This document shows positions 6,877 through 38,150 of a DNA stretch of 64,000 nucleotides, piece by piece; positions within the stretch are counted from its first letter, which is position 1; each line of letters starts with the position of its first letter. The DNA comes from Thermoplasmatales archaeon (GTDB lineage Archaea; Thermoplasmatota; Thermoplasmata; Thermoplasmatales; GCA-001856825): contig JAVYSX010000001.1 of NCBI GenBank assembly GCA_038728965.1, positions 30,586 to 94,585 on the forward strand, given 5' to 3'. The notes beneath the pieces are model-generated. The model ran no database searches. It had not been told where the DNA came from and was given only the letters and a program-made list of their open reading frames with translations. The position numbers and the translations under genes are program-made.

Positions 6877-6886
6877 GTGAACAAAT

Positions 6887-7102
6887 ATGGCAGTTCCGAT
6901 GGCTGTTATGCAATCGATGATCCAGAAACAGGTATCCTTGCTGCTAAAGGATAACACTGTGCTGGAGGGTGTTTTAGAAAGCTATGACGATTATATGAAT
7001 ATGGTGATATCAAGCACTGAAGAGATCAGTGAAAATAACAGGAGGAAACTCGGTACGGTAATATTAAGGGGAAGTAATGTTGTGAGGATTTCCCAGAAGT
7101 AA
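6887..7102 (+). CDS. archaeal Sm-like (LSm/SmAP) protein
   Basis: Sm1 (LLLKDNTVLEGVLESYDDYMNMVI) and Sm2 (LGTVILRGSNVVRI) motifs. 71 aa. Confidence 0.88.
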   Translation: MAVPMAVMQSMIQKQVSLLLKDNTVLEGVLESYDDYMNMVISSTEEISENNRRKLGTVILRGSNVVRISQK

Positions 7103-7113
7103 AAAAGTAAAGA

Positions 7114-8685
7114 ATGATAGTTTTAGGCATTGAAAGTACTGCACATACTGCGTCAGTCGGGATTGTAGAAGGAGGTAAAATAATCGATTTCAAATCTGAC
7201 TCGTACAGGCCAGAAAAAGGTGGGATAAACCCGAGAGAGGCAGCAACACATCACATGAGGTCATTCCCGAAAATCCTGACATCACTGCTGGAAAAGAATA
7301 AGATGGACATCAGGGATATCGATAGGGTGGCGGTTGCAACTGGTCCGGGTCTAGGCCCTGCTCTCAAGACTGGCGTGGAACTGGCAAGGTACATTTCGAT
7401 AAGGTATGGCAAGGGTATTGTCCCTGTTAACCACGGTGTCGCTCACCTCGAAGTTGCCAGAAGCATGTCAGGCTTCAGGAACCCTCTCTTTCTATATGTA
7501 TCGGGGGGCAACACGCAGATCGAAATTATAGGGAACGGGAAGTATTCAATCCTCGGAGAGACACTCGACATAGGAGTGGGGAATTTCCTTGACAAACTCG
7601 CAAGGGACATGGGGATTCCGTTCCCAGGTGCTCCAAAGCTTGAACACCTAGCTTTAAAGGGCAGAGAGATCTTCGATTCTCCATATACAATAAGGGGGAT
7701 GGATGTCGCATACTCCGGTCTGTACACTCACCTAAGAAATTTGATCGGCAGGAAGGACGAAGGTGATATAGCCTTCAACGCGCAGGAATATGCGTTCACA
7801 GCACTGGCTGAGATAGTGGAAAGAGGAATGGCTCATTTTGGACTTGAAGAATTCACAATAACAGGTGGAGTTGCGAGGAACAGAAGGCTAAGGCAGATTC
7901 TCCAAGAAATGGCTCAGCATAGAGGTTATTCCTACTTTTTCCCAGAAGATAAATTTCTTTCCGATAATGGTGGCATGATTGCACTTGCAGGTTTTTTTTC
8001 TTCTAGTACGGTCAAGGCAGATAGGATAACAGCGGACCAATACGAGAGGGTCGACTCCTACAAAGCAAACTGGATTGGTAAGAGAAATGTTACCCCTAAG
8101 TCTATGAAAGGGGGAGAAAGTGTCGTCAAAAGGATCAGATTCCAAGGATTCGACTGCATCCTAAAGATTAGAAGGGGCAGGGATTACAGAAATCCAGATT
8201 TGGACAGAATGATTAACAGATCGAGGGTCAGGAGGGAGGTGAAAATTCTCCATGCGATCAGGGAAGCAGGAATAAATGCGCCTGTTGTTCTTTATGTGAA
8301 CCTTCAGGAGGCAACCCTTATTATGACAAGAATCAAGGGAATCCCCTTGAGTCTGCTTCTTAACACGTCGGAATTTGATGGCCTTGTGGAAGAGTCAGGA
8401 AGGGTTGTAGCAAGAATGCACCTTGCTGGGATCAGCCACGGCGACCTGAATGCAGGAAATATCTTAGTCAATGGGGGGATAAATATAATAGACCCGTCCA
8501 TGGGAAGCACGTCCCCAACGATGGAGGATTTTGGGGTCGACGTTCATCTGATGAAGGAATCGTTAACTTCCCTTGGGATGAGTAAATCTTTTAACAGGTT
8601 CCTTTCCGGATACAAAGAATTTTCTAAATACGATGAGGTCCTTGACAAGGTTAGAGAGATTGAAGGGAGGAGGAGGTACGTATGA
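7114..8685 (+). CDS. kae1: Kae1-Bud32 fusion protein (tRNA t6A threonylcarbamoyl transferase fused to Bud32 kinase)
   Basis: N-terminal half has GIESTAHTASVGIV and VNHGVAHLE (ASKHA/Kae1). C-terminal half has the kinase catalytic loop HGDLNAGNILV and REVKIL. Confidence 0.88.
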   Translation: MIVLGIESTAHTASVGIVEGGKIIDFKSDSYRPEKGGINPREAATHHMRSFPKILTSLLEKNKMDIRDIDRVAVATGPGLGPALKTGVELARYISIRYGKGIVPVNHGVAHLEVARSMSGFRNPLFLYVSGGNTQIEIIGNGKYSILGETLDIGVGNFLDKLARDMGIPFPGAPKLEHLALKGREIFDSPYTIRGMDVAYSGLYTHLRNLIGRKDEGDIAFNAQEYAFTALAEIVERGMAHFGLEEFTITGGVARNRRLRQILQEMAQHRGYSYFFPEDKFLSDNGGMIALAGFFSSSTVKADRITADQYERVDSYKANWIGKRNVTPKSMKGGESVVKRIRFQGFDCILKIRRGRDYRNPDLDRMINRSRVRREVKILHAIREAGINAPVVLYVNLQEATLIMTRIKGIPLSLLLNTSEFDGLVEESGRVVARMHLAGISHGDLNAGNILVNGGINIIDPSMGSTSPTMEDFGVDVHLMKESLTSLGMSKSFNRFLSGYKEFSKYDEVLDKVREIEGRRRYV

Positions 8686-9230
8686 TTTTGATAACTTCAA
8701 ATATGGGAAAATATGAAGAGTACAAATCCATATTCAGGGAAAACGATATCGACCTGGAATTGAAGCTAATGAGTTATCCAGAAGAACAGCTGAGCTCAAT
8801 AGAAGAGGTCGCCAGGAGGTCTTTGTGCTACTTAACCGGCATAATAAAAGACGATTTCTTTATAGACGATTCAGGAATATTCATAAATGCTACGAATGGG
8901 TTTCCAGGTGTATATTCATCCTACGTCTCGAAGACGATCGGAAATGAAGGTATATTAAAATTACTGCATGGAATGAAAGATAGGTCAGCTCAGTTCATGA
9001 CCTGTATAGCGTACTATGATGGAGATGCGCACACATTCCTGGGGATCAGGAATGGACGCATATCAGAGTCTATAAGAGGAAGTAATGGATTCGGCTTTGA
9101 TCCGATATTTATACCTGAAGGCAGCAAGAAAACATACGCTGAGATGTCCCTTAAAGAAAAGAACCTCATCTCTCATAGATCCGCAGCAGTTTCTCTCTTT
9201 ATCGATTTTATCAAGAAAAAGGACAAATAG
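8682..9230 (+). CDS. non-canonical purine NTP pyrophosphatase (HAM1/RdgB ITPase)
   Basis: DDSGIF, FGFDPIF and ISHRS motifs. ATGA-type overlap with kae1-bud32. Confidence 0.85.
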   Translation: MILITSNMGKYEEYKSIFRENDIDLELKLMSYPEEQLSSIEEVARRSLCYLTGIIKDDFFIDDSGIFINATNGFPGVYSSYVSKTIGNEGILKLLHGMKDRSAQFMTCIAYYDGDAHTFLGIRNGRISESIRGSNGFGFDPIFIPEGSKKTYAEMSLKEKNLISHRSAAVSLFIDFIKKKDK

Positions 9231-9250
9231 GAATTCAAAATCCCGTATCT

Positions 9251-9628
9251 GTGGAAAAAGGTAAATACAAGGAATTCAAAATACCCATCTCTCTAGTTTT
9301 CATAGCAGTATCATTATTCTTCTTCGTCCTAACCGTGATCTATTTTTTTGATCTCGCGATCCTTCCACTCGGGTTCCAAACACTCCTCGATTCTGCAGGG
9401 GGATGGTCATATTACATATTTGCAATTTCCCTAATCGTTCTGGTCTATTTCCTCTACCTATTTGTCTCAACTGTATGGCACAGGAGGAAATTCGAGGAAC
9501 TCATCGCCTCTGATAGCAAATCTGTTATAGTTAAGAATTTAAGGGATCTGGAATACATCGCTGGAAAATTGGGCCCCGGCTTTGTAAAAAGGTTGCAGGA
9601 GAAGAAGGAACAACTCAGGATAAAGTAG
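9251..9628 (+). CDS. hypothetical membrane protein (2 TM, GTG start)
   Basis: Two long hydrophobic segments followed by a basic tail. No motif recognised. Confidence 0.45.
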   Translation: MEKGKYKEFKIPISLVFIAVSLFFFVLTVIYFFDLAILPLGFQTLLDSAGGWSYYIFAISLIVLVYFLYLFVSTVWHRRKFEELIASDSKSVIVKNLRDLEYIAGKLGPGFVKRLQEKKEQLRIK

Positions 9629-12500: not shown

Positions 12501-13073
12501 GTGAGCGGTACGAAAGTTGTAATAGGAGGAATTCCGGGTGTTGGAAAGACAACAGTATTACAGTATCTTACAGATTCGGGAATCGATGTGGAAAACTTTG
12601 GAGATATTATGCTGAAAGAGGCGCTATCCAGGGGCTATGTTGATAACAGAGATCAGATGAGGAAAATGCCGCTGGAACTGCAGCTTGAAATCCAGAAAAA
12701 GGCAGCCGAGTATTTCTCTGAAAAGGAATCTGTAGTTATAGATACGCACCTTTCTGTAAGGACTAAGATCGGGTTCCTCCCCGGCCTTCCCCGGAACATC
12801 CTGGAAATAATCAGACCCGACCTTATAATTTCTCTGGAAGCTGATCCGCACGAAATATTCCTTAGGCGTAGCAATGATAGCACCAGGGCCAGGGACAGCG
12901 AAACAGAAGCTGACATAAAAGCGCATATTGATATGAACAGGATGTATGGAACAGTATATTCTGCTATAGCCGGCTGCGCGCTGATGACCGTAAAAAATGA
13001 AACGAATAAAGCAGAAGATGCCGCGAGGGAAATAATTCTTGCAATAAAAGGAAATGATAATAAAAAATTTTAG
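12501..13073 (+). CDS. adkA: archaeal-type adenylate kinase
   Basis: P-loop GIPGVGKTT at the N-terminus. 190 aa, the size and layout of archaeal AdkA. GTG start preceded by AGAGGTGA. Confidence 0.8.
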   Translation: MSGTKVVIGGIPGVGKTTVLQYLTDSGIDVENFGDIMLKEALSRGYVDNRDQMRKMPLELQLEIQKKAAEYFSEKESVVIDTHLSVRTKIGFLPGLPRNILEIIRPDLIISLEADPHEIFLRRSNDSTRARDSETEADIKAHIDMNRMYGTVYSAIAGCALMTVKNETNKAEDAAREIILAIKGNDNKKF

Positions 13074-14194
13074 ACTAGGGTTTCAGAGGGGGTTCTGCCT
13101 ATCGAAGTGAGATACGTCAGGGCAAGGAACCTGTAGAATACGTGAGCAAACTTAGAGTAAGGCGCATATGCAATGAGCATGAACACAAGTATTAGGTGAG
13201 ATGCATAAACGTAGTATGCACTGATAGTGTTCATCAGTCTCAGTATTTCCAAGGAAAAACCGGTGATTACGATGAGAGAAAGCAATATGATAAAGTACCA
13301 ATCGAAGTATGTTTCAGCCTTCGGAATTTTTTTCGAAATCCTACTTTCGATTGCGATGACTATGCCGGGGAAGATGACTACTAAACCTATGTTTCCTATT
13401 ATATTCTGGGGTTCCCCTATTAGAAGGTGAGAAAATCCTAACAAATGAATTTCAAGGGCTCCTACGAATGTTGCCAAAAGGAGGGCTATGAAACCGTAGA
13501 ACACCAAGATATGAGAGTAGTACCTTGTGTGATTTGATCCGCATCTGTTAAAGTTTGAATGTAAAAGAAAGATCTTCAGGGTAATCAGCGCTGATTTTAA
13601 AAACGGTATTTCACCCTTCTTATCCTCTTTTAATGCTCTATAATATCTCCAAGACCCATAACCCAGGGAAAATATAGCAAATAACCCGACTGCAATTCCC
13701 GCATAGTCCACAAGATTAAACGGTATGAAAGAAGAGTAGTATATTGGCCCCGAATTGGGTATAGAAAGGTGGAAGATATAGTATACAAGGAAGAAAAGGG
13801 CAATCGGGATTATAGTAAATATAGGAATAAACCACTTTTCTCTGAATGCTTTCCCCAGAAAACTTGGCCAAGAGTAATGTGTTATCACAACATTCCTAAG
13901 GGCTGTCATTACGCTGCCTGGTTTCGCATTTCTTGGACACTCCTTGGAGCAATCACCGCACTCATGGCACATCCAGATGTCTGCGTCTTTGAGAAGCCGG
14001 TCCTTTAACCCCCACTGTGACCATATCATCTCCTTCCTCGGAAACGGATTTACATCCGGGCTAAGTGGGCAGGCAACAGTGCATACTGAGCATTGCATGC
14101 AGATCTTTAAATCAGATCCTCCAAATTTGATAACATCCCTTACAAAGGAGCTGTCAAATTTCCCTTCACTTCTGATGACATTTCCGGTAGACAT
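13070..14194 (-). CDS. qmoC: QmoC: HdrC-like 2x[4Fe-4S] domain fused to HdrE/NarI-like haem-b membrane domain
   Basis: CMQCSVCTVACP and CHECGDCSKECP motifs, followed by about 6 TM helices containing His residues. Last gene of the apr-qmo operon. Its stop overlaps the adkA stop tail-to-tail. Confidence 0.85.
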   Translation of the reverse strand: MSTGNVIRSEGKFDSSFVRDVIKFGGSDLKICMQCSVCTVACPLSPDVNPFPRKEMIWSQWGLKDRLLKDADIWMCHECGDCSKECPRNAKPGSVMTALRNVVITHYSWPSFLGKAFREKWFIPIFTIIPIALFFLVYYIFHLSIPNSGPIYYSSFIPFNLVDYAGIAVGLFAIFSLGYGSWRYYRALKEDKKGEIPFLKSALITLKIFLLHSNFNRCGSNHTRYYSHILVFYGFIALLLATFVGALEIHLLGFSHLLIGEPQNIIGNIGLVVIFPGIVIAIESRISKKIPKAETYFDWYFIILLSLIVITGFSLEILRLMNTISAYYVYASHLILVFMLIAYAPYSKFAHVFYRFLALTYLTSIGRTPSETLV

Positions 14195-14196
14195 TG

Positions 14197-16425
14197 CTAG
14201 AGCCCCCTATAAGGATTCGGGCCGAAGGCCTTCACAGTTTTGACAAATTCATTCACTACATTCGATATCCTATTCCAGTCAGATAGTTCCACCTGTTGAA
14301 TCCTAAGACGTTCGGGTTCCAGTGCAAGGTTCTCGAATGTACCTTTGAGACCCTCTAGCCTCAGACTGGCAAGCTCGGATCCCCTTATAAAGTGACATTG
14401 ATAGTCCTTGCCATATTTGCATCCAAGCATTAGAATTCCATCAATCCCGGCAGAGAGCGCATCCGCTATCAAGACTGAATTAACGGAGCCTAGACACCTA
14501 ACTGGGATCACCCTGACTTCGTCAGAGTACTTTAGACCGTTCTGAGCGGCTATGTCAAGTGCAGGGTAAGCATCATTCTCGCATGCAAAGACAAGTATCC
14601 TGAGTTTGTCATCGCTGTCCGGAGCTTTGATAGTTTTTAGCATACTGTGTATTTGCTCAACGGAATATAGGTTGAATGATATTGCCTGAACTGGGCAGGC
14701 GCCCATACATATTCCGCAATCTCGGCATCTAAGCGGATTGTATAGGGGATACGTCTTTTCATCTTCATCAAGAGCCCCAAATGGACACTCCTCCGTGCAT
14801 CTCCTGCATTGAGTGCATCTCTGAAGTGATATCGATATATGATCATTTTCCAGGATACGGGGCGGTTCTACGATCTCCCCCCGTGATGCAAGTTCTACTG
14901 CTTTTATAGCTTTCATCGCTGCTCCCCGCGCATCTTCCATGCATTCGATAATTGTGGATGGTGACTTCACGCTACCCGCTGGGAAAATACCTGTTCTCCG
15001 AGATTCGTAGGGGAAGCAAATATAATGAGATTCTGGGAATCCATCGCTAAGCGTTGGCAATTCTGGACCCTGCCTGTATTTGAGGTTCAAAATCCTCTCT
15101 CCACCGCTGGCGCTGTTTCCCTCTTTGAGTGGCACTGGATTCAGGTGCTCGTAAATGAGGGGGCCAGATTCAGGATGCTCTTCCTTAACATTATAGAGGC
15201 CGTACATGCTAGAGAGCATCCCAACAGCCAGTACAACTCTATTGACGACGAGATCGAAATCCGTGTTCAGTGTTGTGTCCTTGAGCCGCAAAGATACTGC
15301 CCTGCCTTCCGTATCAAACACTATATCTTCTACATCTGCCTTCGCCAGAAAAATTTCGGGATCCCTTTGTACCTTTTTATAGAATTCCTCATATATACCA
15401 AGTGCCCTAATATCTTTGTAAAAAATATATACCTTAGATCCCTTTATTCTTTCCCTTATCACGAGTGCCTCTTTAAGCGAGGTAAGACAGCACACCGTAG
15501 AACAGTAAGGTACATTTTCTGGGTCCCTCTGACCGGCGCATAGGATGAAAGCAAATGACTTCGGCGAATCCTGTGAGTTCAGTTCGCCTTTTTTTCTGCG
15601 GAGGTAAGATTCAAGTTCCAAGTTTGTCATAATTAGAGGGCTCTGCCCGTACTTCATTTTAGTAATTTTTCGGGCATCATATAAATTCCAGCCCGTAGCT
15701 ACTACAATTGACCCTACGTTAAGATTTAACTCCCCGTCATCGCTTCTAACATTTACACTGAACGCTCCGGGCTGACCAGATATGCTCGTAACGGTGCTGG
15801 ATGTCATAACTTTTAAATTTACCATTTTCGACAATTCATCTATCTTTTCAGTCAAGAATTTTTTGGCGTCAATGAGATTTGAATAGGGCGATTGCATGGG
15901 AAGGACCTTACCGTAGAGGTTCAGCTTTCCGCCAAGCTTCTCTTCCCTCTCCACCAAAAACGCATTGTATCCTGCCTTTGAGATTTCAAGCGATGCGGTT
16001 ATACCTGTGATTCCTCCTCCTATGACCAAGATATCCTTCGACCGGCTTAGATCTAGATGAACGGGGAAGGACTTATTTTTTAGAGAAGCAAGCCCCATTC
16101 TGAAATAGTCCTCTGCAATTCCCTGCAAGTCATCGTTGACATCGTGGGACCAGACAACACCCTCCCGCAGATTGACCCTCTCTACTATGGCGTTTTCGAA
16201 CTGAAAATTCTGAATTTTCTCGCGCTGTGTGCAGGCGGCCAGCAGGATCTTGTCCGCCCCATCGGACAGGCACTCTCTGATGATGCCTGTCTCATTGCAG
16301 AGCTGATCGCAGATGTGAGCGGTGACCGAATATTCTTTCTCCGCTATTTCCTTCAGTTTCTGTAGGTCCAATTTTCCTCCAATACCGCATCCTCTGCATA
16401 TGAATGCCCTCATTTTATCGTTCAT
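14197..16425 (-). CDS. qmoB: QmoB: HdrA-like flavoprotein with ferredoxin insert and C-terminal MvhD-like domain
   Basis: FAD fold VIGGGITGITASLE. CTQCRRCTEECP and CRDCGICMGACP. MvhD-like tail (LVFACENDAYPALD...RCLGSV). Start reassigned to the ATG at 16425, which forms an ATGA overlap with the qmoA stop. The tracked extension to 16566 runs inside qmoA. Confidence 0.85.
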   Translation of the reverse strand: MNDKMRAFICRGCGIGGKLDLQKLKEIAEKEYSVTAHICDQLCNETGIIRECLSDGADKILLAACTQREKIQNFQFENAIVERVNLREGVVWSHDVNDDLQGIAEDYFRMGLASLKNKSFPVHLDLSRSKDILVIGGGITGITASLEISKAGYNAFLVEREEKLGGKLNLYGKVLPMQSPYSNLIDAKKFLTEKIDELSKMVNLKVMTSSTVTSISGQPGAFSVNVRSDDGELNLNVGSIVVATGWNLYDARKITKMKYGQSPLIMTNLELESYLRRKKGELNSQDSPKSFAFILCAGQRDPENVPYCSTVCCLTSLKEALVIRERIKGSKVYIFYKDIRALGIYEEFYKKVQRDPEIFLAKADVEDIVFDTEGRAVSLRLKDTTLNTDFDLVVNRVVLAVGMLSSMYGLYNVKEEHPESGPLIYEHLNPVPLKEGNSASGGERILNLKYRQGPELPTLSDGFPESHYICFPYESRRTGIFPAGSVKSPSTIIECMEDARGAAMKAIKAVELASRGEIVEPPRILENDHISISLQRCTQCRRCTEECPFGALDEDEKTYPLYNPLRCRDCGICMGACPVQAISFNLYSVEQIHSMLKTIKAPDSDDKLRILVFACENDAYPALDIAAQNGLKYSDEVRVIPVRCLGSVNSVLIADALSAGIDGILMLGCKYGKDYQCHFIRGSELASLRLEGLKGTFENLALEPERLRIQQVELSDWNRISNVVNEFVKTVKAFGPNPYRGL

Positions 16426-17669
16426 TTGCCACCCCTCACACTCACAACCTTTTGAAGCGCCTTCAAAACGGCCCCTGCCGCTGTCTCGTTCGACTGTCTC
16501 ACGTCCATAGGCCTGACAGCTACACCAGAACCGTAGATACCGTCCTGATCCACAACAAACCCCCATTCATCGTATAGAACTCCCTCTATCCTCTCTTCCT
16601 TGCCTTCAGGCTGCATCCCCGTCGCGAGAACAACAAGGTCAAATTCCTTCGTCACTTTTCTACCAGCTACTGTGTCTTCCACACGAACAAGAAGATTCCC
16701 TTTCTCGTTGCCGACAACCCTTGTTACCCTCCCCCTTGTAAACTTTACTGCACTATCCCCCCTGATCCTTCTCAGGAAATTTTCATTTAGGCCGTATGCC
16801 CGGATGTCAATGTAAAATATCTCTATCTCAGAATCAGGGCACTGTTCACGTATGTAGAGAGCCTCCTTCATTGAAGAGAGACAGCATATCTGAGAGCAGT
16901 AGGGCAGGTTATTTTCATCCCTCGATCCGGCGCATTGCACAAATGCGACTTTCTTCGGTCTCCTTCCATCGGACAATCTTATTATTTTGCCCTTGGTGGG
17001 TCCGTTGGGGGACGCCATCCTCTCAAGAATTATGTTGGTGATAACGTCTTTGTATTTCCCATAGCCAAGACCATATATATTTGCTGCGTCGTACGGCTTC
17101 CATCCCGTTGCTATTATAACTGACTTAGATACAACTTTAATTGCATCTTCCTTTTGGTCAAGATCTATGGCACCATATGGGCAGGCTTCAACACATTTTG
17201 AGCACTCCTTCCCCTTGCAGTATTCTCCGTCTATTGCGTACATTGATGGGTACGCGTATGGGCTTGGAAGATAGACGGCTTTAGTGCTCCCTAGCGACAG
17301 ATTAAAAGTATCAGGCCTCTCTACCGGACATACAGATACGCACTCTCCGCATGCGGTACACCTGTTGTTCACATATCTCGGCTTTATCAATATTCTGGAA
17401 TCGAAATAATCCCCGTCCCTAACTATGTTTTGAACGTGAGCATTCGTAAGGAGAACTATATTACCGAGCGTTTTCATCGTTTTTGTATATATCTCGAGGC
17501 CGCACTGAGGAGGGCACATCTTTGGAAAATATTTGAAAAGCTGGACTACGCGTCCTCCTATGTAAGGATTCTTCTCTGCCAATGCAACAGTAAGACCGAA
17601 TTCAGCAGCTTCAAGGGATGCAGTGATTCCTGAAGGACCCCCGCCTACAACGAGCAGATCAACATTCAA
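16422..17669 (-). CDS. qmoA: QmoA: HdrA-like FAD/FeS flavoprotein
   Basis: LLVVGGGPSGITASLEAA at residue 5. CTACGECVSVCP and CSKCVEACP. TTG start with GGTGA 6 nt upstream. Confidence 0.85.
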   Translation of the reverse strand: MNVDLLVVGGGPSGITASLEAAEFGLTVALAEKNPYIGGRVVQLFKYFPKMCPPQCGLEIYTKTMKTLGNIVLLTNAHVQNIVRDGDYFDSRILIKPRYVNNRCTACGECVSVCPVERPDTFNLSLGSTKAVYLPSPYAYPSMYAIDGEYCKGKECSKCVEACPYGAIDLDQKEDAIKVVSKSVIIATGWKPYDAANIYGLGYGKYKDVITNIILERMASPNGPTKGKIIRLSDGRRPKKVAFVQCAGSRDENNLPYCSQICCLSSMKEALYIREQCPDSEIEIFYIDIRAYGLNENFLRRIRGDSAVKFTRGRVTRVVGNEKGNLLVRVEDTVAGRKVTKEFDLVVLATGMQPEGKEERIEGVLYDEWGFVVDQDGIYGSGVAVRPMDVRQSNETAAGAVLKALQKVVSVRGGK

Positions 17670-17696
17670 AACATGTCACCGAAGGGGAAAAAATGA

Positions 17697-19637
17697 TCAG
17701 ATGGTGTAATCCGCCACCTGAACGAAAGGCACTTTCTGGATTTCCCAGATTCCGCTCTGTGGATCTTTCCTACCCACCGTGAAACACTTCCATTCGCTGT
17801 CATTAATGTCCGGATAATCTGTCCTGTAATAGTATCCCGGCCACCTCGTTTCCTTCCTAAATTTAAGGTGTTCCATGTGGGCTTCAGCAACGATCACCCT
17901 GTGATGCATTTCCCAGGCCCTCATGAGTTCGTGTAAATTTCTCGCTGCAATTTTCTCCATATCTTCCTTCAGGAAAAAGAGCTTCTTTAGACCCTCATTA
18001 AGCATGTGCTCGTTAGTTCTGAACCAAGTGGATGCTCCTCCCGCGTATTCATCCATTAATTTCTGAAGTCTCCAGAGAGCCTGCTTCGGAAATAGATAAT
18101 TTGGATTCACTTCTTCAGCCGTGGTGGCATTCTTGAACTGATCGTAGATCTCCATAGGGCTATAAATTTTCTTTTTAAGGTCTTCTATCTTAGAATCGTC
18201 AATTTCGACGTCACCCTGTTCAACTGCATACCTTATGGCTTCCTTTCCCGCGATCCTCCCTTCTGTGAATGAACCACTTGAAAATTTATGCGGACTGGCT
18301 CCTGCGTTATCGCCTACGGCGAACAGCCCCTTCACGGTTGTCATCCTGTTGTAGGCGAGAGGAAACAACTTTTTGTATTCATCTGGCATAAGATCCTCTG
18401 GTCCACGAACCCACAAACCTGCGCACCCTGAATGCGACCCCATGAGATATGGTTCAGCAGCAACAATTTCAGATGGTGCTTTTTCAGGCTCTGTGTTCGT
18501 AGCAGCCCAAAGGAGGGCTTGGTCTATCGTCATATCCAAGAAGTCCTCCCACGCATCCTCAAGTAGCTTTTTAGTGTTCTTAGGGTCCCCTGCAGAGAGT
18601 TTCTGCAGAGCTTCCTCGGTTCTCATATATATGGGTCCCCTGCCCTGAACCATTTCCTCTATCATCTGGTGATTTCTGAGCGGTGTAGGAACTGGAGATG
18701 CGTTGGCGTACGGTTTGTATTTCTCTATCGCTGCTGTATTTTCAGTGTAGTCCATTCCATAGGCGTTTGTGGCTCTGCTCTTGAACAGAAGGAACCAGGC
18801 ACCAACTGGGCCGTAGCCATCTTTGAAACGTGTTGGTATGAATCTATGCTCCATCTGAGTTGTGTGCGCTCCCACCTCTATGGCAGCTGCATAACCCGAA
18901 CCCGTGTTGAAAACCGCATACCATATCCTGCCCATGCCCTCCCCTGTGCTTTTTGGTCTGAACAGACCTGTTGCACCCCCAGTTGCTATGATGACAGCCT
19001 TGGACTTGAAGACGTAAAATACAGGATCCCTCACGCTGAAACCTACTGCGCCTGCAACCTTACCTGCATCATTCTTGTCAAGGAGGAGATGCGTTATGAA
19101 GACCCTTTCGAATATGTTATCCTCGCCAATCGCCTTTTTAGCTGCTTCCGCTACTATTGGCTTGTATGATTCTCCGTTTATCATTATCTGCCATCTTCCT
19201 TCCCTTACGTACTTCCCATTTTCGTCTTTCCAGATGGGAAGCCCCCACTTTTCGAACAGGTGAACTGAGTCGTCCACATTTCTAGCATAGTCAATAACGA
19301 GGTCTTCCCTTGACACTCCCATCATATCCAAGGTGACATACCTTGCAAACTCCTCTAGCGTGATTGGTTTATTGTTAGTGAACTGAGATCTTCCAGATAG
19401 CCCTAGGTAACAATTTATTGCGGAAAGACCGTGGGCAACGGCGCCGCTCCTTTCAATTGCAGCTTTTTCAACCAGTGTAACCTTTTTGCCGGCTGCTTTA
19501 GCCCAATAAGCAGCTTCATAAGCCGCACCGCAGCCAGACATACCCCCTCCAATTATAAGTACGTCTGTAGAAATGACCTTCGTTTGGACATCAGAAGCTT
19601 TATAAATTTCTGTTTTTTTATACGACTCTACCGCCAC
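17697..19637 (-). CDS. aprA: adenylylsulfate (APS) reductase alpha subunit
   Basis: 646 aa flavoprotein. DVLIIGGGMSGCGAAYEAAYWAK...SGAVAHGLSAINCYLG is typical of AprA. Immediately downstream of aprB. Confidence 0.9.
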   Translation of the reverse strand: MAVESYKKTEIYKASDVQTKVISTDVLIIGGGMSGCGAAYEAAYWAKAAGKKVTLVEKAAIERSGAVAHGLSAINCYLGLSGRSQFTNNKPITLEEFARYVTLDMMGVSREDLVIDYARNVDDSVHLFEKWGLPIWKDENGKYVREGRWQIMINGESYKPIVAEAAKKAIGEDNIFERVFITHLLLDKNDAGKVAGAVGFSVRDPVFYVFKSKAVIIATGGATGLFRPKSTGEGMGRIWYAVFNTGSGYAAAIEVGAHTTQMEHRFIPTRFKDGYGPVGAWFLLFKSRATNAYGMDYTENTAAIEKYKPYANASPVPTPLRNHQMIEEMVQGRGPIYMRTEEALQKLSAGDPKNTKKLLEDAWEDFLDMTIDQALLWAATNTEPEKAPSEIVAAEPYLMGSHSGCAGLWVRGPEDLMPDEYKKLFPLAYNRMTTVKGLFAVGDNAGASPHKFSSGSFTEGRIAGKEAIRYAVEQGDVEIDDSKIEDLKKKIYSPMEIYDQFKNATTAEEVNPNYLFPKQALWRLQKLMDEYAGGASTWFRTNEHMLNEGLKKLFFLKEDMEKIAARNLHELMRAWEMHHRVIVAEAHMEHLKFRKETRWPGYYYRTDYPDINDSEWKCFTVGRKDPQSGIWEIQKVPFVQVADYTI

Positions 19638-19642
19638 TTAGC

Positions 19643-20110
19643 TCACCTCGATACTGCCCTCTTCTTTACATTAATCTTTTCCGGATCCTTGCACTCGTGC
19701 CCCCCTGCAAGCCCAGGTCCCTTCAGCCCGTCAAAAGAAGGTTGCTCAAACCCCTCGAACGGATTGACAGAATCCCATGGAGTTGTTCTTATCGGGAACT
19801 TGAACCTCAGAATTTTCCCATTCCTGAAGCGCACTGTCCAGAGTATGGAGTCTGTTCCCCTCTTTGGTGTCACTTTCGCGCCCAGAGGGACGAAGTCCGC
19901 GTAACCTCTTGCTTCTATTGCATCTTTTGGACACGTTTTTATGCAGGAGAAGCACTCCCAACACATGTCTGGCTCCTGATTGTAGGCTTTCATCTTGACC
20001 ATGTCGAGCACCATCAGGTCGTTTGGACATATGTATTGGCATGCTGTCCTGGCAAGCGCTTTACAACCATCACATTTCTCCGGATTTACATAAGTCGGCA
20101 TTATCATCAC
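19643..20110 (-). CDS. aprB: adenylylsulfate (APS) reductase beta subunit
   Basis: MPTYVNPEKCDGCK...CQYICPNDLM...CWECFSCIKTCP gives two [4Fe-4S] motifs plus the AprB tail. The start may be the ATG at 20101 rather than 20110. Confidence 0.9.
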   Translation of the reverse strand: MMIMPTYVNPEKCDGCKALARTACQYICPNDLMVLDMVKMKAYNQEPDMCWECFSCIKTCPKDAIEARGYADFVPLGAKVTPKRGTDSILWTVRFRNGKILRFKFPIRTTPWDSVNPFEGFEQPSFDGLKGPGLAGGHECKDPEKINVKKRAVSR

Positions 20111-20405
20111 GATTCCTATAGTCTAGCCTCCCCCTGTTTTTGTGTATTTACTAGACACGAGCAGGCCAGTCTATGCAGTTTGATTCGTGGAAATTATAAA
20201 AGACTATACCTTTATCGGTAAGGCACTCTTACGAACGTGGAATAAAAAAAGACGGGGATTTTACCCTAGACTTGCCGTTTGCTTAGGGGGGCAAATCATT
20301 TATTGATTTCAAAATAGGCGTTTAGCTAAAATTATCGGGTTAATTAACCTTAACTAACTGCTGAAAGTTTTATGAATAAAATACAAATAAAGGTTTGAAA
20401 AGGAT

Positions 20406-21011
20406 ATGCCGACTAAAACTGCCCTTGAGGTCGTAGTGGAAATCGAGAGAGAAGATTGTGTTATAACAAATGCTCTTGCAGACGTCAATTGCACCATCGT
20501 TAGACTTCTCATGAGGCCAGACTATACATTGCATCGTGTTAAACCGACTGAATCCTGTGACCCCATTGACGTTTCCAGGCTGAAGAATCTCAAGCTACGC
20601 CGGGTCGGGAACGGTGCATTTTGGATAGAAAGTCCGAGCTGTTCTGTATGTAACTTGCTTTCAAGGATTCACTTCATAAACCCTATCGGAACTCACTCTG
20701 TTGGCAAAAATCACGTCCAGGTTAGGTTTTTAGTGGCATCTAGAGGGGATCTGAAACTTTTCAAAAAGGAACTGGATAATAGTGGATTAAAGTACACAAT
20801 ACTGAGCATCTCTCCATTCATGCATCAGGAGCTAACACAAAAAGAAAGATTTGCATTGGAGGAGGCCCTGAAGAGGGGTTACTTTGATATTGAGGGTAGG
20901 ATATCGCTCACAGAACTATCCCACTTCCTTGGAGTAACGCCGGCATCGCTTTCTGAGCTTCTCCGAAGGGGGCTCAAGAAGACAGTATCCAACTACCTTT
21001 ACGAATATTAA
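20406..21011 (+). CDS. HTH_10 (bacterio-opsin-activator type) transcriptional regulator with Cys-containing N-terminal domain
   Basis: C-terminus LTQKERFALEEALKRGYFDIEGRISLTELSHFLGVTPASLSELLRRGLKK matches the Bat-type HTH pattern. N-terminal domain has Cys 18, 29, 51 and a CSVC pair. Divergent from aprB. Confidence 0.7.
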   Translation: MPTKTALEVVVEIEREDCVITNALADVNCTIVRLLMRPDYTLHRVKPTESCDPIDVSRLKNLKLRRVGNGAFWIESPSCSVCNLLSRIHFINPIGTHSVGKNHVQVRFLVASRGDLKLFKKELDNSGLKYTILSISPFMHQELTQKERFALEEALKRGYFDIEGRISLTELSHFLGVTPASLSELLRRGLKKTVSNYLYEY

Positions 21012-21045
21012 ACAGATGGCGTACGTTATATTTTGAGTACCCCAA

Positions 21046-21420
21046 TCAACTCCATGATAGCAGTATATCAACGTCCTCCGCGTAGGCGAAGAAGTATGCA
21101 ATGCCCACAATTTCAAAACCTGCAACTAGGTTGCTTTTGTCAATACCGAATGTCTGCGCAGCGAGAGAACACATGCGCAACATAACACCATTATCAATTG
21201 CCTCCCTAACCCTGTTTTTTATCTTTTGATCCAGTCTCTCAAAGACCTGTTGTTTCCCGATAAGGACACCATCCAAATAAAAAAATACTAAAGTCTCGTA
21301 ATCCATTACTGCGGCTGCATTGGCATAGCCAAGCATTGTCTCGATCCTCGTGTTGTCGCTCGGAGGAACCATAGAAAAAAATGCGATTTTTTTTCTTCTT
21401 GAACTTTCTTGATTACTCAT
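21046..21420 (-). CDS. DsrE/DsrF-family sulfur-relay-like protein (stand-alone)
   Basis: 124 aa. The beta-alpha-beta pattern KKIAFFSMV...VFFYLDGV...LRMCSLAAQTFGI parallels the DsrE/TusD layout, including the conserved Cys position. A TTAAATTT box about 27 nt before the ATG suggests a leaderless mRNA. Confidence 0.55.
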   Translation of the reverse strand: MSNQESSRRKKIAFFSMVPPSDNTRIETMLGYANAAAVMDYETLVFFYLDGVLIGKQQVFERLDQKIKNRVREAIDNGVMLRMCSLAAQTFGIDKSNLVAGFEIVGIAYFFAYAEDVDILLSWS

Positions 21421-21939: not shown

Positions 21940-22000
21940 ACCTAATCTGTAAGGTGTCCAATTCATAATTAATCTTACAATTCAAAATAAGGTGCTATCT

Positions 22001-22351
22001 ATGGCCGAACAAACAAAGAATAGGATTGTCGAGGTCAGGATGTCAGACGGATCTACCAAAGAAATAAATATTGACGAGGACGGTTTTATATTAAATCCAT
22101 CTGAATGGTGCCCCGAATTTGTATCTGCAATATCTGCAGAAGAAGGAATCTCAAATCTGACCGAAGATCACTGGAAGGTGATAAATTATCTTAGGCAATA
22201 CTATCTCACCTACGATAGTTGCCCTCCTATAAGGATGCTAACTAAGAGTACAGGTTTCGATCTTAAAAAGATATACGAATTGTTCCCAACAGGTCCCGCT
22301 AAGGGAGCTTGCAGGATGGCAGGGGCTCCGAAACCAACGGGGTGCGTCTGA
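22001..22351 (+). CDS. dsrC: DsrC (dissimilatory sulfite reductase gamma / trisulfide carrier)
   Basis: C-terminal arm ...GACRMAGAPKPTGCV carries both conserved Cys residues, 10 residues apart, with the penultimate Cys present. ATG 22001 has AAGGTG 6 nt upstream. The tracked GTG at 21992 is less likely. Confidence 0.9.
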   Translation: MAEQTKNRIVEVRMSDGSTKEINIDEDGFILNPSEWCPEFVSAISAEEGISNLTEDHWKVINYLRQYYLTYDSCPPIRMLTKSTGFDLKKIYELFPTGPAKGACRMAGAPKPTGCV

Positions 22352-22654
22352 ATGATATACCTAGTATGTCCCATATGCGGATACGCCATCGACATTTTTA
22401 CGGAGGAAGAGGCTTCAAATCCAATAAGATCGAAAAGAATGAAATATCTCCTGACCAGGGATCAGGTTTGTCCGAATTGCATTAATGCCATACCAAAATG
22501 TGAAAAAGTAGAGGCAGCGGAAAATGATATCCCGATTTTGAGGGTAAATATAGATAAGGTGGAATTAGAACAATTTTCTCGATACCTTAAAGAAAAGGGT
22601 TACGTCGTTGGCACTGAGTTTGCGCTTAATGAATTCAGAGGTGGTAAGAAATGA
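22352..22654 (+). CDS. uncharacterised 100-aa zinc-ribbon protein embedded between dsrC and dsrA
   Basis: CPICG (res 6-9) and CPNC (res 40-43) form a 4-Cys ribbon. The C-terminal ~45 aa look like a small folded domain. The ATG abuts the dsrC TGA, with GGGGTG 7 nt upstream. The stop forms an ATGA overlap with dsrA. Confidence 0.7.
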   Translation: MIYLVCPICGYAIDIFTEEEASNPIRSKRMKYLLTRDQVCPNCINAIPKCEKVEAAENDIPILRVNIDKVELEQFSRYLKEKGYVVGTEFALNEFRGGKK

Positions 22655-23835
22655 CCGAATTACCGGAAGAAGTAGTAAAAGGAAGGAAGATCCTCGAAGA
22701 TCTAAAGAGAGGTTCATGGCCAAATTTTGTAAAGGAAGCGCAGAAAACAAGGTATCCAGTAGATCTTTACGGGGCATCGCTGGCTCTAAAGCGCGATCTA
22801 TTCACTACCGGCGGGTACGTTTCTGTCCCTGGAGCCCCTACTGGAATATTGATGAGAGTTACAAGTAGACCTGATATAGGAGAGAGCGCGAACATAGTAA
22901 GAGTTCTGATTCCTTCAGGCAACTTCGTAACCTCCGATATGCTAGACAAGCTCTGTGAACTTGCTGATAAGTATGGAGTTGGTCTGATACATGCTATAAG
23001 TACTGGAGAGGATATAGAAATACCGGGGATACCTAAGGAAAGAATAAGAGATTTCATAGCAGAGCTCAGGCAGAATGGCTACGAATGTGGCTCCACCGGG
23101 GATGCCTTCAGAGCAACAACAACTTGCGTTGGAAGTGCCCTCTGCGAGTATTCAAATCTGAATACCGAGGAATTCAGAGACAAGTTCTATGACATTTATA
23201 ACGACTTTGCCAAGTATCCGACGTTCCCGCATAAGGTGAAGGTCAAGGTATCTGGTTGCCCAATAGATTGCGGAAGGGCAACTCAGAAGGCCGATATTGG
23301 AATAATAGGATCGTGGAAAGGTGCCCCAGAGATAGACGAGAATTTGGTGAAGAATTTGACTGAGGCAGAAATTAATGAAATTGTGAGCGGATGCCCTACC
23401 AGTGCAATATCCAAGGAAGGTAGCACAATCAGGATAAAGGGGGAAGACTGCAACCAGTGCATGCTCTGTGTGAGAAAAAGCAAAGGCGCTATAATGCCTG
23501 GGAAGGAGAAACAATATCTAATTTACATTGGAGGAAAACTGAGGGGCAAAAAAGGCCCACTAACTGGTAAATTATTAACGAGACTAAATACACCTGAGGA
23601 AGCACTGAATATTATCAACAGGATCGTGGAGGTCTATATTGATCAGGCAGCCAGAAAGGAGAGAATCGGTGATATGCTATTACGGGTCGGAATGAAAGGC
23701 TTCATTGACATGCTAAAGGAGAAACCAAAGGCAATGAATTCTAAGGATCTGCGAACGAATGTTTTCTACGCTGTCGACGAGAAAGGTCGAGAAGAAATTC
23801 CTAAGGAAGTAAGTAAGGCTGTGGGGGGTGATTGA
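22651..23835 (+). CDS. dsrA: dissimilatory sulfite reductase alpha subunit
   Basis: GSWPNFVKE N-terminal motif. Sirohaem-[4Fe-4S] motifs CX5C (TCVGSALCE) and CX3C (SGCPIDC). Ferredoxin insert CPTSAI...CNQCMLCV. Confidence 0.92.
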   Translation: MTELPEEVVKGRKILEDLKRGSWPNFVKEAQKTRYPVDLYGASLALKRDLFTTGGYVSVPGAPTGILMRVTSRPDIGESANIVRVLIPSGNFVTSDMLDKLCELADKYGVGLIHAISTGEDIEIPGIPKERIRDFIAELRQNGYECGSTGDAFRATTTCVGSALCEYSNLNTEEFRDKFYDIYNDFAKYPTFPHKVKVKVSGCPIDCGRATQKADIGIIGSWKGAPEIDENLVKNLTEAEINEIVSGCPTSAISKEGSTIRIKGEDCNQCMLCVRKSKGAIMPGKEKQYLIYIGGKLRGKKGPLTGKLLTRLNTPEEALNIINRIVEVYIDQAARKERIGDMLLRVGMKGFIDMLKEKPKAMNSKDLRTNVFYAVDEKGREEIPKEVSKAVGGD

Positions 23836-23836
23836 A

Positions 23837-24898
23837 ATGCAGGAAGGGCCACCAAGACCTTACACGAAATTCATCCCTGCTTATTTGAAGGATTCAGTAG
23901 GAAAATGGAGGACACATAGGATTGTAGAGCCAGGAATAATGGAGCACACTGATATTAGCGGAAAGAAAATATATACGGTTCGAGCTGGTTCCACACCGAA
24001 TGGCAGATACAGTACGGAAACTATGAGGAAGATATCGGCCCTCGCACGCAAATACTCCGGGGGAAGTATGAGATTTACGGGCGCCATTAACATGGAGTTC
24101 ATTACCAAGGATCTCAAAGATGCTATATCTCTCAAAACGGACCTCGAAGATTTGGGCTTTCCCATCGGTGGATGGGATGGCCATCTCTGGAGCTTAACAT
24201 CGTGCGCTGGTTACTTCCACTGCGCTTTGGCCGCGACGGATGCTCCATCCATCATTCAAAACATCGCAAATGCGATTGGCAAGTACTTTGACAAGGAGGA
24301 ACTTCCAGCAAAACTGACTGTGGCCGCATCCGGGTGTCCCAGCTCCTGTGGGAACAGCTTCCTTACGGATATATCGATAAGTGGCATCCATACAGAGATC
24401 CCTATCATAACTAAAGACGTAGCGAAATGCGATCTTCAGGGTACCGCTTATACCTGTCCCGTGGGCGCCATCCAGATCAAGCAGAACCCCGATGGTTCAA
24501 AGAGTCTGGAAATCAGAGGTAATCTGTGTATAGGATGCGGTCTCTGCGTAGGTGCCTGTGGCGGCATTATTTTTGAAACCCCTGAGAAAACCGACGGTCA
24601 CGCAATAGCAATAGGCGGAAAGGCAGTTCCGTCGAGGGTGGGTACGACACTTTCCAGAATAATAATTCCATATCTGCCTAATGAACCGCCGTATTACCCA
24701 AAGACAGTTGCTGCCGTACTGAGAATAGTTGATACATGGCGAAAGGATGCAAAAAAAGGAGAGAGGATCGCTGATTGGGTCGATAGAATTGGCTGGGAGA
24801 AGTTCTTTGAGAAAACAGGTCTTCCGTATTTCGAGCAGAGTATGGAATATCTCGATATCAGGGGTATAACGACGCTGAGGGACGGGGGCACAAGATAG
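23837..24898 (+). CDS. dsrB: dissimilatory sulfite reductase beta subunit
   Basis: CX5C (SCAGYFHC) and CX3C (GCPSSC). Ferredoxin insert CPVGAI...CIGCGLCVGAC. ATG 23837 has GGGGGTG 7 nt upstream. The tracked GTG at 23828 is the alternative start. Confidence 0.92.
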   Translation: MQEGPPRPYTKFIPAYLKDSVGKWRTHRIVEPGIMEHTDISGKKIYTVRAGSTPNGRYSTETMRKISALARKYSGGSMRFTGAINMEFITKDLKDAISLKTDLEDLGFPIGGWDGHLWSLTSCAGYFHCALAATDAPSIIQNIANAIGKYFDKEELPAKLTVAASGCPSSCGNSFLTDISISGIHTEIPIITKDVAKCDLQGTAYTCPVGAIQIKQNPDGSKSLEIRGNLCIGCGLCVGACGGIIFETPEKTDGHAIAIGGKAVPSRVGTTLSRIIIPYLPNEPPYYPKTVAAVLRIVDTWRKDAKKGERIADWVDRIGWEKFFEKTGLPYFEQSMEYLDIRGITTLRDGGTR

Positions 24899-24925: not shown

Positions 24926-25678
24926 ATGAGCATAGGGGACTGGGCTATTATTGCGTATGCGTACGTCGCTGTAGCCGTATTCTTAGTTGGTACGGTGGTA
25001 ACCCTTGTGAGGTGGATATTCCTGCCAAAGGGTCCCTCAAAGACGTTCCTGGGGTATCCCTACCTTTTTACGTATCCGGGGATTGATTCAAGGCTTCGTG
25101 CGTTCAAGAATATACTATCCAGAATTTTCCTTTTTTCCAGCATGAAGAATGACCCAATTCTCAGAATTTCATCGGCGATTTTCCACTGGACCCTGTGGAT
25201 TGTGATAGCCGCACATCTAGACATTGTTCTCATGCCATATTTTTCAGCTACAGGCATAAGCGAGAAAACCATGTCTATGATAGGCGATTATCTCGGAACT
25301 TCATTGGCCATTGTCATGGTAGCTTTCGGGACGTACCTGCTGATCAGAAGGTTCACCAACATCTACGTGAGAAAAACGAGCTATATGTCAGATTATTTTT
25401 CTATAATCCTCATAATCGCCCTGGGTGTATCAGGAATAGTCATGAGGTTCACGCTTCCCCCTCTATTTGCCTATAACTATGTCACGCCCTTCATATATTC
25501 CCTTATACATTTTTCTCCCATTCAGGTTCCTATCTTTACCCAGTTCCTGGTGCATTTTCTCATCGCATCAACCCTTTTGATCTACTTTCCGTTCAGCAAG
25601 TTCATGCACCCGTATTCTTTCTTTACCAACCCCACCATGTATTCAATTTTCCATCCCGGTGAAGTAAATGAAACCTAA
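24926..25678 (+). CDS. dsrM: DsrM (NarI/HdrE-like dihaem-b membrane quinol oxidoreductase subunit)
   Basis: 250 aa, about 5-6 TM helices with conserved His residues. GAGGTG Shine-Dalgarno sequence. Located between dsrB and dsrK. Confidence 0.8.
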   Translation: MSIGDWAIIAYAYVAVAVFLVGTVVTLVRWIFLPKGPSKTFLGYPYLFTYPGIDSRLRAFKNILSRIFLFSSMKNDPILRISSAIFHWTLWIVIAAHLDIVLMPYFSATGISEKTMSMIGDYLGTSLAIVMVAFGTYLLIRRFTNIYVRKTSYMSDYFSIILIIALGVSGIVMRFTLPPLFAYNYVTPFIYSLIHFSPIQVPIFTQFLVHFLIASTLLIYFPFSKFMHPYSFFTNPTMYSIFHPGEVNET

Positions 25679-27915: not shown

Positions 27916-27916
27916 T

Positions 27917-33666: not shown

Positions 33667-33722
33667 TTACATTTATCCCCGACCAACATCTCTTTTAAAT
33701 ATAATTGTGGAATCCAAGCAAA

Positions 33723-34850: not shown

Positions 34851-34865
34851 GCAATTACGACAGTC

Positions 34866-38050: not shown

Positions 38051-38150
38051 TATTGCTTTCGGAAAGATGTGTCAGGATGCCTGAAAGGTCATTTCCCAAT
38101 TACGTAAAGGTAAATAATGCAGTTGTACTAAGGTTTAAGGGTGTTAAAAC

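Follow-up and report, generated by a model that had tools for sequence, protein, structure and literature searches.

We have analysed a 64-kb window of DNA (contig JAVYSX010000001.1, assembly GCA_038728965.1; all positions below are those of this stretch) from an uncultured Thermoplasmatales archaeon, which encodes a complete adenosine 5'-phosphosulfate (APS) reductase (AprBA) and a complete QmoABC complex directly beside the genes of a dissimilatory sulfite reductase core (DsrAB, DsrC, and DsrMK). Judged by the closest relatives of its genes, this locus is a mosaic, as the apr-qmo genes are Archaeoglobaceae-like, while DsrAB is of the early-branching Thermoplasmatota archaeal type. The five apr-qmo genes are intact and conserved, and the operon probably serves anaerobic sulfate respiration by converting APS to sulfite.

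The aprBA-qmoABC operon and its products

Five co-directional open reading frames (ORFs), all on the minus strand, span positions 13070-20110 of the window and encode the following:

19643-20101, minus strand: aprB, APS reductase beta subunit with two [4Fe-4S] clusters and a C-terminal tail, 152 aa from the ATG at 20101
17697-19637, minus strand: aprA, APS reductase alpha subunit, a flavin adenine dinucleotide (FAD) flavoprotein, GTG start
16422-17669, minus strand: qmoA, HdrA-like flavoprotein, TTG start with GGTGA 6 nt upstream
14197-16425, minus strand: qmoB, HdrA-like flavoprotein, two [4Fe-4S] motifs, MvhD/FlpD domain at the C-terminus
13070-14194, minus strand: qmoC, membrane subunit with an HdrC-like di-cluster N-terminus and an HdrE/NarI-like domain of ~6 helices

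All four junctions were inspected base by base. The aprB stop (TGA, 19645-19643) and the aprA start (GTG, 19637) are 5 nt apart, the aprA stop (TGA, 17699-17697) and the qmoA start (TTG, 17669) are separated by 27 nt, the qmoA stop (TGA, 16424-16422) overlaps the qmoB start (ATG, 16425-16423) as ATGA (-4 nt), and 2 nt lie between the qmoB stop (TAG, 14199-14197) and the qmoC start (ATG, 14194). Shine-Dalgarno-like GGTGA/GAGG motifs precede the aprA, qmoA, qmoB, and qmoC starts by 5-8 nt. The aprB ORF reaches back to a GTG at 20110, but its upstream GTG/ATG codons are not kept in relatives, and the true start is likely the ATG at 20101, from which the product aligns from M1 with AprB of Archaeoglobus fulgidus. 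The qmoB ORF similarly runs to 16566, with the ATG at 16425 being the start used here.

Both subunits of the APS reductase exceed the cut-offs of their own equivalog models. AprB scored 214 bits with TIGR02060 (cut-off 136) and matched PF12139 (APS-reductase_C) at 7e-29, aligned with A. fulgidus AprB over its full length from residue 1 (1JNR_B, 230 bits), and contains the Fe-S motif CWECFSCIKTC, including the conserved Trp of CWEC. AprA scored 1012 bits with TIGR02061 (cut-off 642), compared with 224 bits for the best non-Apr model (PRK08275, fumarate reductase/succinate dehydrogenase), which is under that model's cut-off of 587, and it aligned over its whole length with A. fulgidus AprA (2FJA/1JNR, 1006 bits). 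We take the residues of the FAD/APS site in the A. fulgidus enzyme to be N74, Y95, E141, W234, R265, R317, and H398, and when these were mapped by hand on an alignment to 2FJA_A, their equivalents in AprA were identical in 7/7 cases. AprA is therefore firmly grouped with the dissimilatory APS reductases, and APS-reducing activity is predicted. The AprA-like 3'-phosphoadenosine 5'-phosphosulfate (PAPS) reductase of Methanothermococcus thermolithotrophicus (PDB 8A8O) belongs to the same flavoprotein fold family, but its score is 339 bits versus the 1006 bits to dissimilatory AprA and, unlike the AprA of the window, it is assimilatory and has no Qmo partner. We also considered AprA as a non-APS paralog of the fumarate reductase-like kind, a grouping that would have undone the original prediction of an APS reductase made from the letters of this DNA; this was excluded by the TIGR02061 score and the A. 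fulgidus alignment, in which the active-site residues are kept.

The three remaining genes encode a Qmo complex of the usual composition. QmoA matched the HdrA2 and HdrA models over its FAD domain (1e-109 and 1e-92) and has one CxxCxxCxxxC motif and no MvhD domain; it is not considered a true HdrA because its scores are well under the cut-offs of these models. QmoB likewise matched HdrA models strongly, yet far below their cut-offs, and its PDB matches are HdrA and MvhD chains. It contains two CxxCxxCxxxC motifs and, as the only one of the Qmo proteins, a PF02662 (FlpD/MvhD) domain, located at residues 610-735 (2e-40). QmoC exceeded the equivalog cut-off of NF038018 (349 versus 300 bits), covering model positions 2-360 of 360, and has two CxxCxxCxxxC motifs together with ~6 hydrophobic helices, within which His142, His228, His250, and His333 are located. 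As residues 5-105 match HdrC in the PDB, QmoC is predicted to consist of a haem-b type membrane domain fused to an HdrC-like Fe-S domain. Bacterial QmoABC (Desulfovibrio and Gram-positive sulfate reducers) has the same three-subunit architecture and is likewise encoded downstream of aprBA, with identities to the window proteins of ~45-52% for QmoA/B and ~40% for QmoC. Ramos and colleagues reportedly described in 2012 a direct interaction of bacterial Qmo with AprBA.

The gene content and layout predicted originally are thus borne out. The predicted gaps of 5, 27, -4 (ATGA), and 2 nt between five co-directional genes match the junctions exactly, the AprBA assignment agrees with both equivalog models, and the full Qmo complex has all of the parts ascribed to it, i.e. 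two HdrA-like flavoproteins, an MvhD tail on QmoB, and an HdrC/HdrE-fusion QmoC passing NF038018. The adjacent DsrAB, DsrC, and DsrMK that had been named are likewise present according to their motifs and model matches.

Relatives, conservation, and mosaic origin of the locus

The host had been supposed to be an archaeon, and it is a thermoacidophilic member of the Thermoplasmatales (GTDB family GCA-001856825) from the Tengchong acidic springs. Sulfite-only reducers are known from its class (Colman 2020, PMC7174415). An identical AprA is encoded on an 8.7-kb contig of a fragmentary metagenome-assembled genome (MAG) that is already deposited and annotated at NCBI (GCA_038729345.1, JAVYSE). This MAG corresponds to DRTY-16_202007_bins_48 from a Tengchong spring, classified as Thermoplasmata; Thermoplasmatales; family GCA-001856825 (Qi et al. 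2024, PMC11094006, Suppl. Data 3). A scan of species-representative genomes for AprA yielded the following relatives, given with their AprA identity to the window:

L002 (96%) and L003 (93%): Thermoplasmatales MAGs from the same spring system
L004 (91%) and L005 (82%): two 'KM' Thermoplasmata MAGs
L006 (81%): a Thermoplasmatota MAG
Archaeoglobaceae: 74-76%
Bacteria: <=60%

In L002-L004, the order dsrK-M-B-A / orf / dsrC / dsrE / HTH_10 / aprBA-qmoABC / adkA / gdhA is the same as in the window, gene for gene. The position of qmoABC directly downstream of aprBA is shared by L002-L004, L006, and the Archaeoglobaceae loci.

Nei-Gojobori dN/dS ratios were computed against L002 and were 0.03 for aprB, 0.04 for aprA, 0.09 for qmoA, 0.07 for qmoB, and 0.05 for qmoC, with 0.02-0.03 for dsrAB and 0.02 for gdhA as comparison genes. 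In the comparisons with L003 and L004, saturation of synonymous sites was reached, yet AprBA is still 86-92% identical. Hence, all five apr-qmo genes are under strong purifying selection. The orthologous aprA, aprB, and dsrAB genes are also transcribed in situ: in metatranscriptome 202207_DRTY-16, the rMAG DRTY-16_202007_bins_2, which is L003, has transcripts per million values of 50 for aprA, 26 for aprB, 51 for dsrA, and 96 for dsrB (Qi et al. 2024, PMC11094006, Suppl. Data 8). The gene numbering of that dataset was matched to the L003 gene order, and L003 AprA is ~92-93% identical to that of the window. From these results, it is hardly conceivable that apr-qmo is a decaying remnant or arose as an artefact of assembly or binning, with Archaeoglobi DNA placed on a Thermoplasmatales contig. 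Such an origin might produce the 75% identity of AprA to its A. profundus counterpart and the GC content of apr-qmo (0.46-0.48), which is slightly above the window mean, but both junctions of the block (on the HTH_10/dsr side and on the adkA/gdhA side) are found again in MAGs that were assembled independently and come from different samples and sites, and a remnant is at odds with five intact ORFs, dN/dS ratios of 0.03-0.09, and transcribed orthologs. A chimeric contig is excluded by the conservation of the junctions in L002-L004.

The dsr genes are located on the opposite strand of the same locus, together with genes for the synthesis of siroheme:

21992-22351, plus strand: dsrC, TIGR03342 118 bits (cut-off 53.5), PF04358
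22352-22654, plus strand: 100-aa ORF with CPxC...CPxC, between dsrC and dsrA, abutting the dsrC stop and overlapping the dsrA start by 4 nt
22651-23835, plus strand: dsrA, TIGR02064 280 bits (below the equivalog cut-off of 393)
23828-24898, plus strand: dsrB, TIGR02066 320 bits (below the equivalog cut-off of 341.5)
24926-25678, plus strand: dsrM-like gene, NarI-type cytochrome b, NF038037 4.6e-19, PF02665
25668-27053, plus strand: dsrK, CCG-domain Fe-S protein, NF045796 326 bits (below the cut-off of 400)
27055-28594, plus strand: uroporphyrinogen-III methyltransferase and precorrin-2 dehydrogenase of siroheme synthesis, TIGR01469 282 bits (cut-off 185) and TIGR01470 83 bits (cut-off 62)

DsrC has both C-terminal cysteines in a C-X10-C-V end (C-terminus ...GACRMAGAPKPTGCV), the siroheme/[4Fe-4S] motifs C-X5-C and C-X3-C are found in both DsrA and DsrB, and DsrK contains two Fe-S motifs and a CCG motif. 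DsrA, DsrB, and DsrK remain under the NCBIfam equivalog cut-offs because they belong to a divergent archaeal clade. In public MAGs, orthologous DsrA carries the NCBI label 'hypothetical protein'; archaeal-type DsrAB is systematically under-annotated. The 100-aa ORF is kept in its place in L001-L005, where its orthologs are 49-100% identical; it has no Pfam match, and its AlphaFold2 model has a predicted local distance difference test score of 60, which is too low for comparison with a DsrD-like fold. The ORF may encode a new kind of accessory protein for archaeal-type Dsr loci.

The two halves of the locus have different relatives. The best match outside of the Thermoplasmata is an Archaeoglobaceae-like locus for all five apr-qmo proteins, with identities to Archaeoglobaceae of 74-76% for AprA, 69-73% for AprB, 53-57% for QmoA, 53-55% for QmoB, and 37-46% for QmoC. 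The gene order aprB-aprA-qmoA-qmoB-qmoC is that of the sat-aprBA-qmoABC loci of the A. profundus type, and the catalytic residues and cofactor motifs are kept. In a quick neighbour-joining tree of 30 AprA sequences (100 distance bootstraps), the seven Thermoplasmata sequences form a clade (bootstrap 100) whose sister is the A. profundus-type Archaeoglobaceae (98), and this joint group excludes the sequences of the A. veneficus type (88) and the A. fulgidus type (100). The Thermoplasmata clade is thus placed inside the Archaeoglobus radiation, which suggests a transfer from Archaeoglobaceae to Thermoplasmata. DsrA, on the other hand, scored 166 bits against A. fulgidus DsrA, and its database relatives of 53-97% identity all come from Thermoplasmata or 'Euryarchaeota' MAGs, after which identity drops to 34%. 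The DsrAB of family GCA-001856825 has been placed in 'reductive archaeal type' clades (2026 study, PMC12948486), whereas Archaeoglobus DsrAB is of the bacterial type. The original prediction had proposed a phylogeny to see whether apr-qmo and dsr came from the same donor lineage, and the answer from these comparisons is that they did not. The window further differs from the Archaeoglobaceae in its Thermoplasmatales host of acidic springs and in the physical linkage of the operon to dsr.

Role of the operon and the source of APS

With an electron path borrowed from studies of bacterial Qmo, the operon could be envisaged as follows. Electrons from the membrane quinol pool would enter QmoC (haem-b helices and Fe-S clusters), pass to the HdrA-like flavoproteins QmoB and QmoA (FAD and Fe-S), and then reach the FAD of AprA through the pair of [4Fe-4S] clusters in AprB, whereupon AprA would convert APS to sulfite and AMP. 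AMP would be recycled by the adenylate kinase encoded by adkA, tail to tail with qmoC, and sulfite would be reduced by the adjacent DsrAB with DsrC, using siroheme from the genes directly downstream of dsr; DsrMK would then re-reduce the DsrC trisulfide to release sulfide. We infer the reductive direction from DsrAB, which belongs to an archaeal clade classed as reductive, from DsrC with both of its cysteines, and from the window itself, in which neither a DsrEFH trio nor DsrL was found (there is only one DsrE-family gene) and DsrAB falls outside the oxidative bacterial type.

Several points weigh against this assignment of function. The AprA tree is a neighbour-joining tree of 30 sequences rather than a model-based one, and the electron path is drawn by analogy, with no Qmo structure in the PDB copy searched. 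A DsrE-family gene is present in the locus and AprBA-QmoABC also runs in reverse in sulfur oxidisers, and for these two reasons the sequence does not settle the direction of the reaction. The source of APS is a further difficulty. No sat (ATP sulfurylase) was detected in the 64-kb window or in L001-L004, either by a scan for the motifs QxRNxxHxxH and GRDH[AS]G or by tblastn with three Sat sequences (E > 0.7), and none of the ORFs annotated in the window was recognised as a sulfate permease or a pyrophosphatase, both of which may be encoded elsewhere in the genome. A homolog search that started from L005 Sat, which is of the Archaeoglobus type, likewise gave no copy attributable to the sub-clade of the window among the best 120 relatives of this one Sat type; its matches, including those of 68-74% identity, led to other lineages only (sat-DUF6955-aprBA loci, acid mine drainage Thermoplasmatota, Thermoplasmataceae, and bacteria), and it was unable to reach the shorter I-plasma-type Sat.

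If the pathway operated oxidatively, sulfite from DsrAB/DsrC (fed by a DsrE-like sulfur carrier) or from another source would be combined with AMP by AprBA to form APS, with the electrons passing via Qmo to quinone. Sat or an ADP-sulfurylase would then cleave APS, and adenylate kinase would complete a substrate-level gain of ATP. AprBA-QmoABC is indeed common to sulfate reducers and sulfur oxidisers (review PMC10591310), the adjacency of adenylate kinase is equally consistent with sulfite oxidation by the classical APS pathway, and a microaerophilic, sulfide-oxidising lifestyle has been inferred for Thermoplasmatales in acidic systems (PMC9326234). The DsrE-family gene, which has a conserved Cys and lies between apr and dsr in exactly this sub-clade, may be a hint in the same direction. 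We nevertheless consider oxidative operation unlikely, as the locus has no DsrEFH trio or DsrL, the archaeal DsrAB clade is regarded as reductive, the archaea with a Dsr pathway characterised so far are reductive only (PMC10591310), and the apr-qmo module apparently descends from that of sulfate-reducing Archaeoglobaceae. Moreover, Sat or an equivalent would be needed on this route too.

The location of sat differs sharply among the relatives. It adjoins aprB in L005 and L006 and in every Archaeoglobaceae locus that reaches into the region upstream of this gene, whereas the window and L002-L004, for which the retrieved loci cover +/-10 kb around aprA, have neither sat nor the small gene of ~100 aa between sat and aprB. 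On that side of aprB, these are replaced by the HTH_10 and DsrE-like genes (20406-21420 in the window). The arrangement in the other two Thermoplasmata loci is itself variable, with qmoC of L005 located upstream of sat instead of after qmoB (5567-9357) and sat of L006 being divergent from aprB (7131-8716). Together with the ARK-15 MAG TVZ.SD19.226 and Thermoplasmataceae UBA509, L005 (KM4364-13) and L006 (FK_Sedi_A_Bin.125) have an AprA in the clade of the window (81-82% identical, bootstrap 100) and keep an Archaeoglobus-type sat beside aprB; dsr is on the same contig wherever the retrieved locus of these four reaches it, and qmoABC is found in L005 and L006. The original prediction of a full dissimilatory sulfate metabolism has therefore not been demonstrated, even though more distant relatives have sat beside aprB: sulfate activation in this genome is unproven because sat is absent from the 64 kb of the window and, in its three closest relatives, from the 10 kb on either side of aprA.

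One could argue from this pattern that the sub-clade has no sulfate-activating enzyme whatsoever, having lost the Archaeoglobus-type sat, with AprBA-Qmo acting on APS from elsewhere or interconverting sulfite and APS without Sat. The absence of sat from precisely the place where L005, L006, and the Archaeoglobaceae have it would agree with this, as would the lack of an Archaeoglobus-type Sat traceable to these MAGs. Still, we find it improbable, more so than the oxidative route. The loci cover 22-64 kb of genomes of ~1.2-1.3 Mb, the Sat search was confined to the best 120 relatives of a single type, and the purifying selection on aprBA and its transcription argue for a supplied substrate. Furthermore, a different Sat of ~385 aa, with best matches in I-plasma and Methanocaldococcus, has been found in a MAG of family GCA-001856825 (Sriaporn et al. 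2023, PMC10439147, supplement), and among the Thermoplasmata studied, sat was described as 'almost exclusive' to families GCA-001856825 and Thermoplasmataceae (PMC10439147). Thus, Sat is likely, but unproven, elsewhere in the host genome. In the same dataset, MAG TVZ.SD19.231 has 4x coverage for its apr/sat contig compared with 17x for the contig with an I-plasma-type sat (PMC10439147), which hints at a binning problem.

Returning to sulfate respiration as the probable role of the operon, we can tentatively envisage how it was assembled, although we would not put this scenario at even odds. A native and ancient DsrABC-MK core of the archaeal type would have been joined by aprBA-qmoABC captured from Archaeoglobaceae, and a native I-plasma-type Sat would have served after loss of the Archaeoglobus-type sat, which accompanies this module everywhere else, such that sulfite respiration was upgraded stepwise to sulfate respiration by components of three separate origins under one divergent HTH_10 regulator. 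An extreme variant would dispense with Sat entirely, with AprBA-Qmo acting on APS from another source.

These results bear upon the Thermoplasmata described previously as sulfite-only. The 'Diaforarchaea' of YNP-TEG (order ARK-15) were reported to have no Sat and no AprAB (Colman et al. 2020, PMC7174415). They share with the window the class Thermoplasmata, moderately acidic hot springs, early-branching DsrAB, DsrC, and DsrMK, and the homologs of the window DsrA are all from MAGs of this YNP-TEG/ARK-15-like kind. However, those MAGs are without Sat and true AprAB, whereas the window has AprBA and QmoABC and belongs to a different order-level group (Thermoplasmatales, GCA-001856825). In the ARK-15 MAG TVZ.SD19.226, a single 53-kb contig contains dsrB, dsrA, aprA, and an Archaeoglobus-type sat (PMC10439147, supplementary file 2), and the full gene set therefore occurs in some members of the order first called sulfite-only. 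For family GCA-001856825 itself, aprAB with dsrABC, as well as sat, have already been reported in MAG surveys (PMC10439147, PMC11094006). In the searchable literature, we found no report of a complete QmoABC in this family, of the Archaeoglobaceae ancestry of the whole apr-qmo module beside an archaeal-type Dsr core, or of the sub-clade-specific loss of the aprB-adjacent sat. Thermoplasmata with early-branching DsrAB were once cited for sulfite reduction having preceded sulfate reduction on the early Earth, their first genomes lacking Sat and AprAB. In a sister lineage from the same kind of acidic spring, the ancient Dsr core now appears directly beside a complete, selected, and transcribed AprBA-QmoABC of apparent Archaeoglobaceae ancestry, which would provide a concrete and datable example of how lateral transfer can build sulfate respiration on top of a sulfite-reducing metabolism. 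These abundant acid-spring archaea would also become candidates for acidophilic sulfate reducers, which are scarce in culture.

Control regions, flanking genes, and the remainder of the window

The intergenic regions and genes bordering the operon include the following:

20191-20223, minus strand: promoter-like block of 33 nt, CCTTACCGATAAAGGTATAGTCTTTTATAATTT, with a TATA-like core TTTATAAT at 20200-20193, ~90 nt upstream of aprB
20114-20129, minus strand: leader motif of 16 nt, AGGCTAGACTATAGGA, just before the aprB start
13040-13069, minus strand: T-rich tract AATTTTTTATTATCATTTCCTTTTATT, directly after the qmoC stop and within the convergent adkA
12501-13073, plus strand: adkA, archaeal adenylate kinase, NF003122 205 bits (cut-off 155), convergent with qmoC with a 4-nt overlap
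20406-21011, plus strand: HTH_10 (bacterio-opsin-activator-type) regulator, PF04967 2.5e-11, divergent from aprB
21046-21420, minus strand: DsrE/DsrF-family small protein, PF02635 1.4e-16, with a single Cys (LRMCSLAAQ)

The block at 20191-20223 is near-invariant in the window, L002, L003, and L004, even though the surrounding intergenic DNA has diverged, and is a candidate archaeal promoter. A conserved block containing a TATA element occurs upstream of aprB only. The leader motif at 20114-20129 is invariant in all four aligned loci and is possibly a ribosome-binding or regulator site, and the T-rich tract at 13040-13069 is a candidate archaeal terminator. These conserved promoter and leader blocks fit the reading of aprB-aprA-qmoA-qmoB-qmoC as one transcription unit. 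The hexamer TAGACT occurs twice in the conserved blocks of the aprB leader (20168-20173 and 20120-20125, minus strand), within ATAGACTGGCC and GCTAGACTATAGGA. Both copies may be putative binding sites of the divergent HTH_10 protein, itself a candidate regulator of the apr-qmo/dsr locus. The HTH_10 gene and the DsrE-like gene are both found at their positions in L001-L004 only. The adkA gene adjoins qmoC in L002-L004 as well and also in L006, albeit in the other orientation, and this adjacency suggests a functional coupling through the recycling of AMP from the APS reductase.

At the far end of the dsr-siroheme cluster is a GPR1/FUN34/YaaH (AceTr/SatP) anion-channel gene (28591-29217, minus strand), which is kept in L002, L003, and L006 and could serve acetate handling or the transport of another small anion. 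The siroheme genes are part of a larger tetrapyrrole cluster (27055-28594 and 31830-40296) with cobA, sirC, hemH, hemE, a TIGR04053 radical-SAM gene (AhbD-related), hemL, hemC, hemD, hemA, and hemB, which combines genes of the classical (hemE/hemH) and siroheme-dependent types. Scans of the window for tRNA genes and Rfam families gave no match. The rest of the window consists of archaeal housekeeping genes, such as those for succinyl-CoA ligase, a Kae1-Bud32 fusion, Csl4, archaeal MAT, TopA, SMC, and RPA, with Kae1-Bud32, Csl4, archaeal MAT, and TopA being distributed over both sides of the locus. Two stretches of ~1.2-1.3 kb each (43308-44614 and 48625-49806) have no ORF of >=100 aa and a lower GC content of 0.35-0.41, and the only feature in them is an imperfect palindrome of 22 nt (49763-49806) just in front of the SMC gene.

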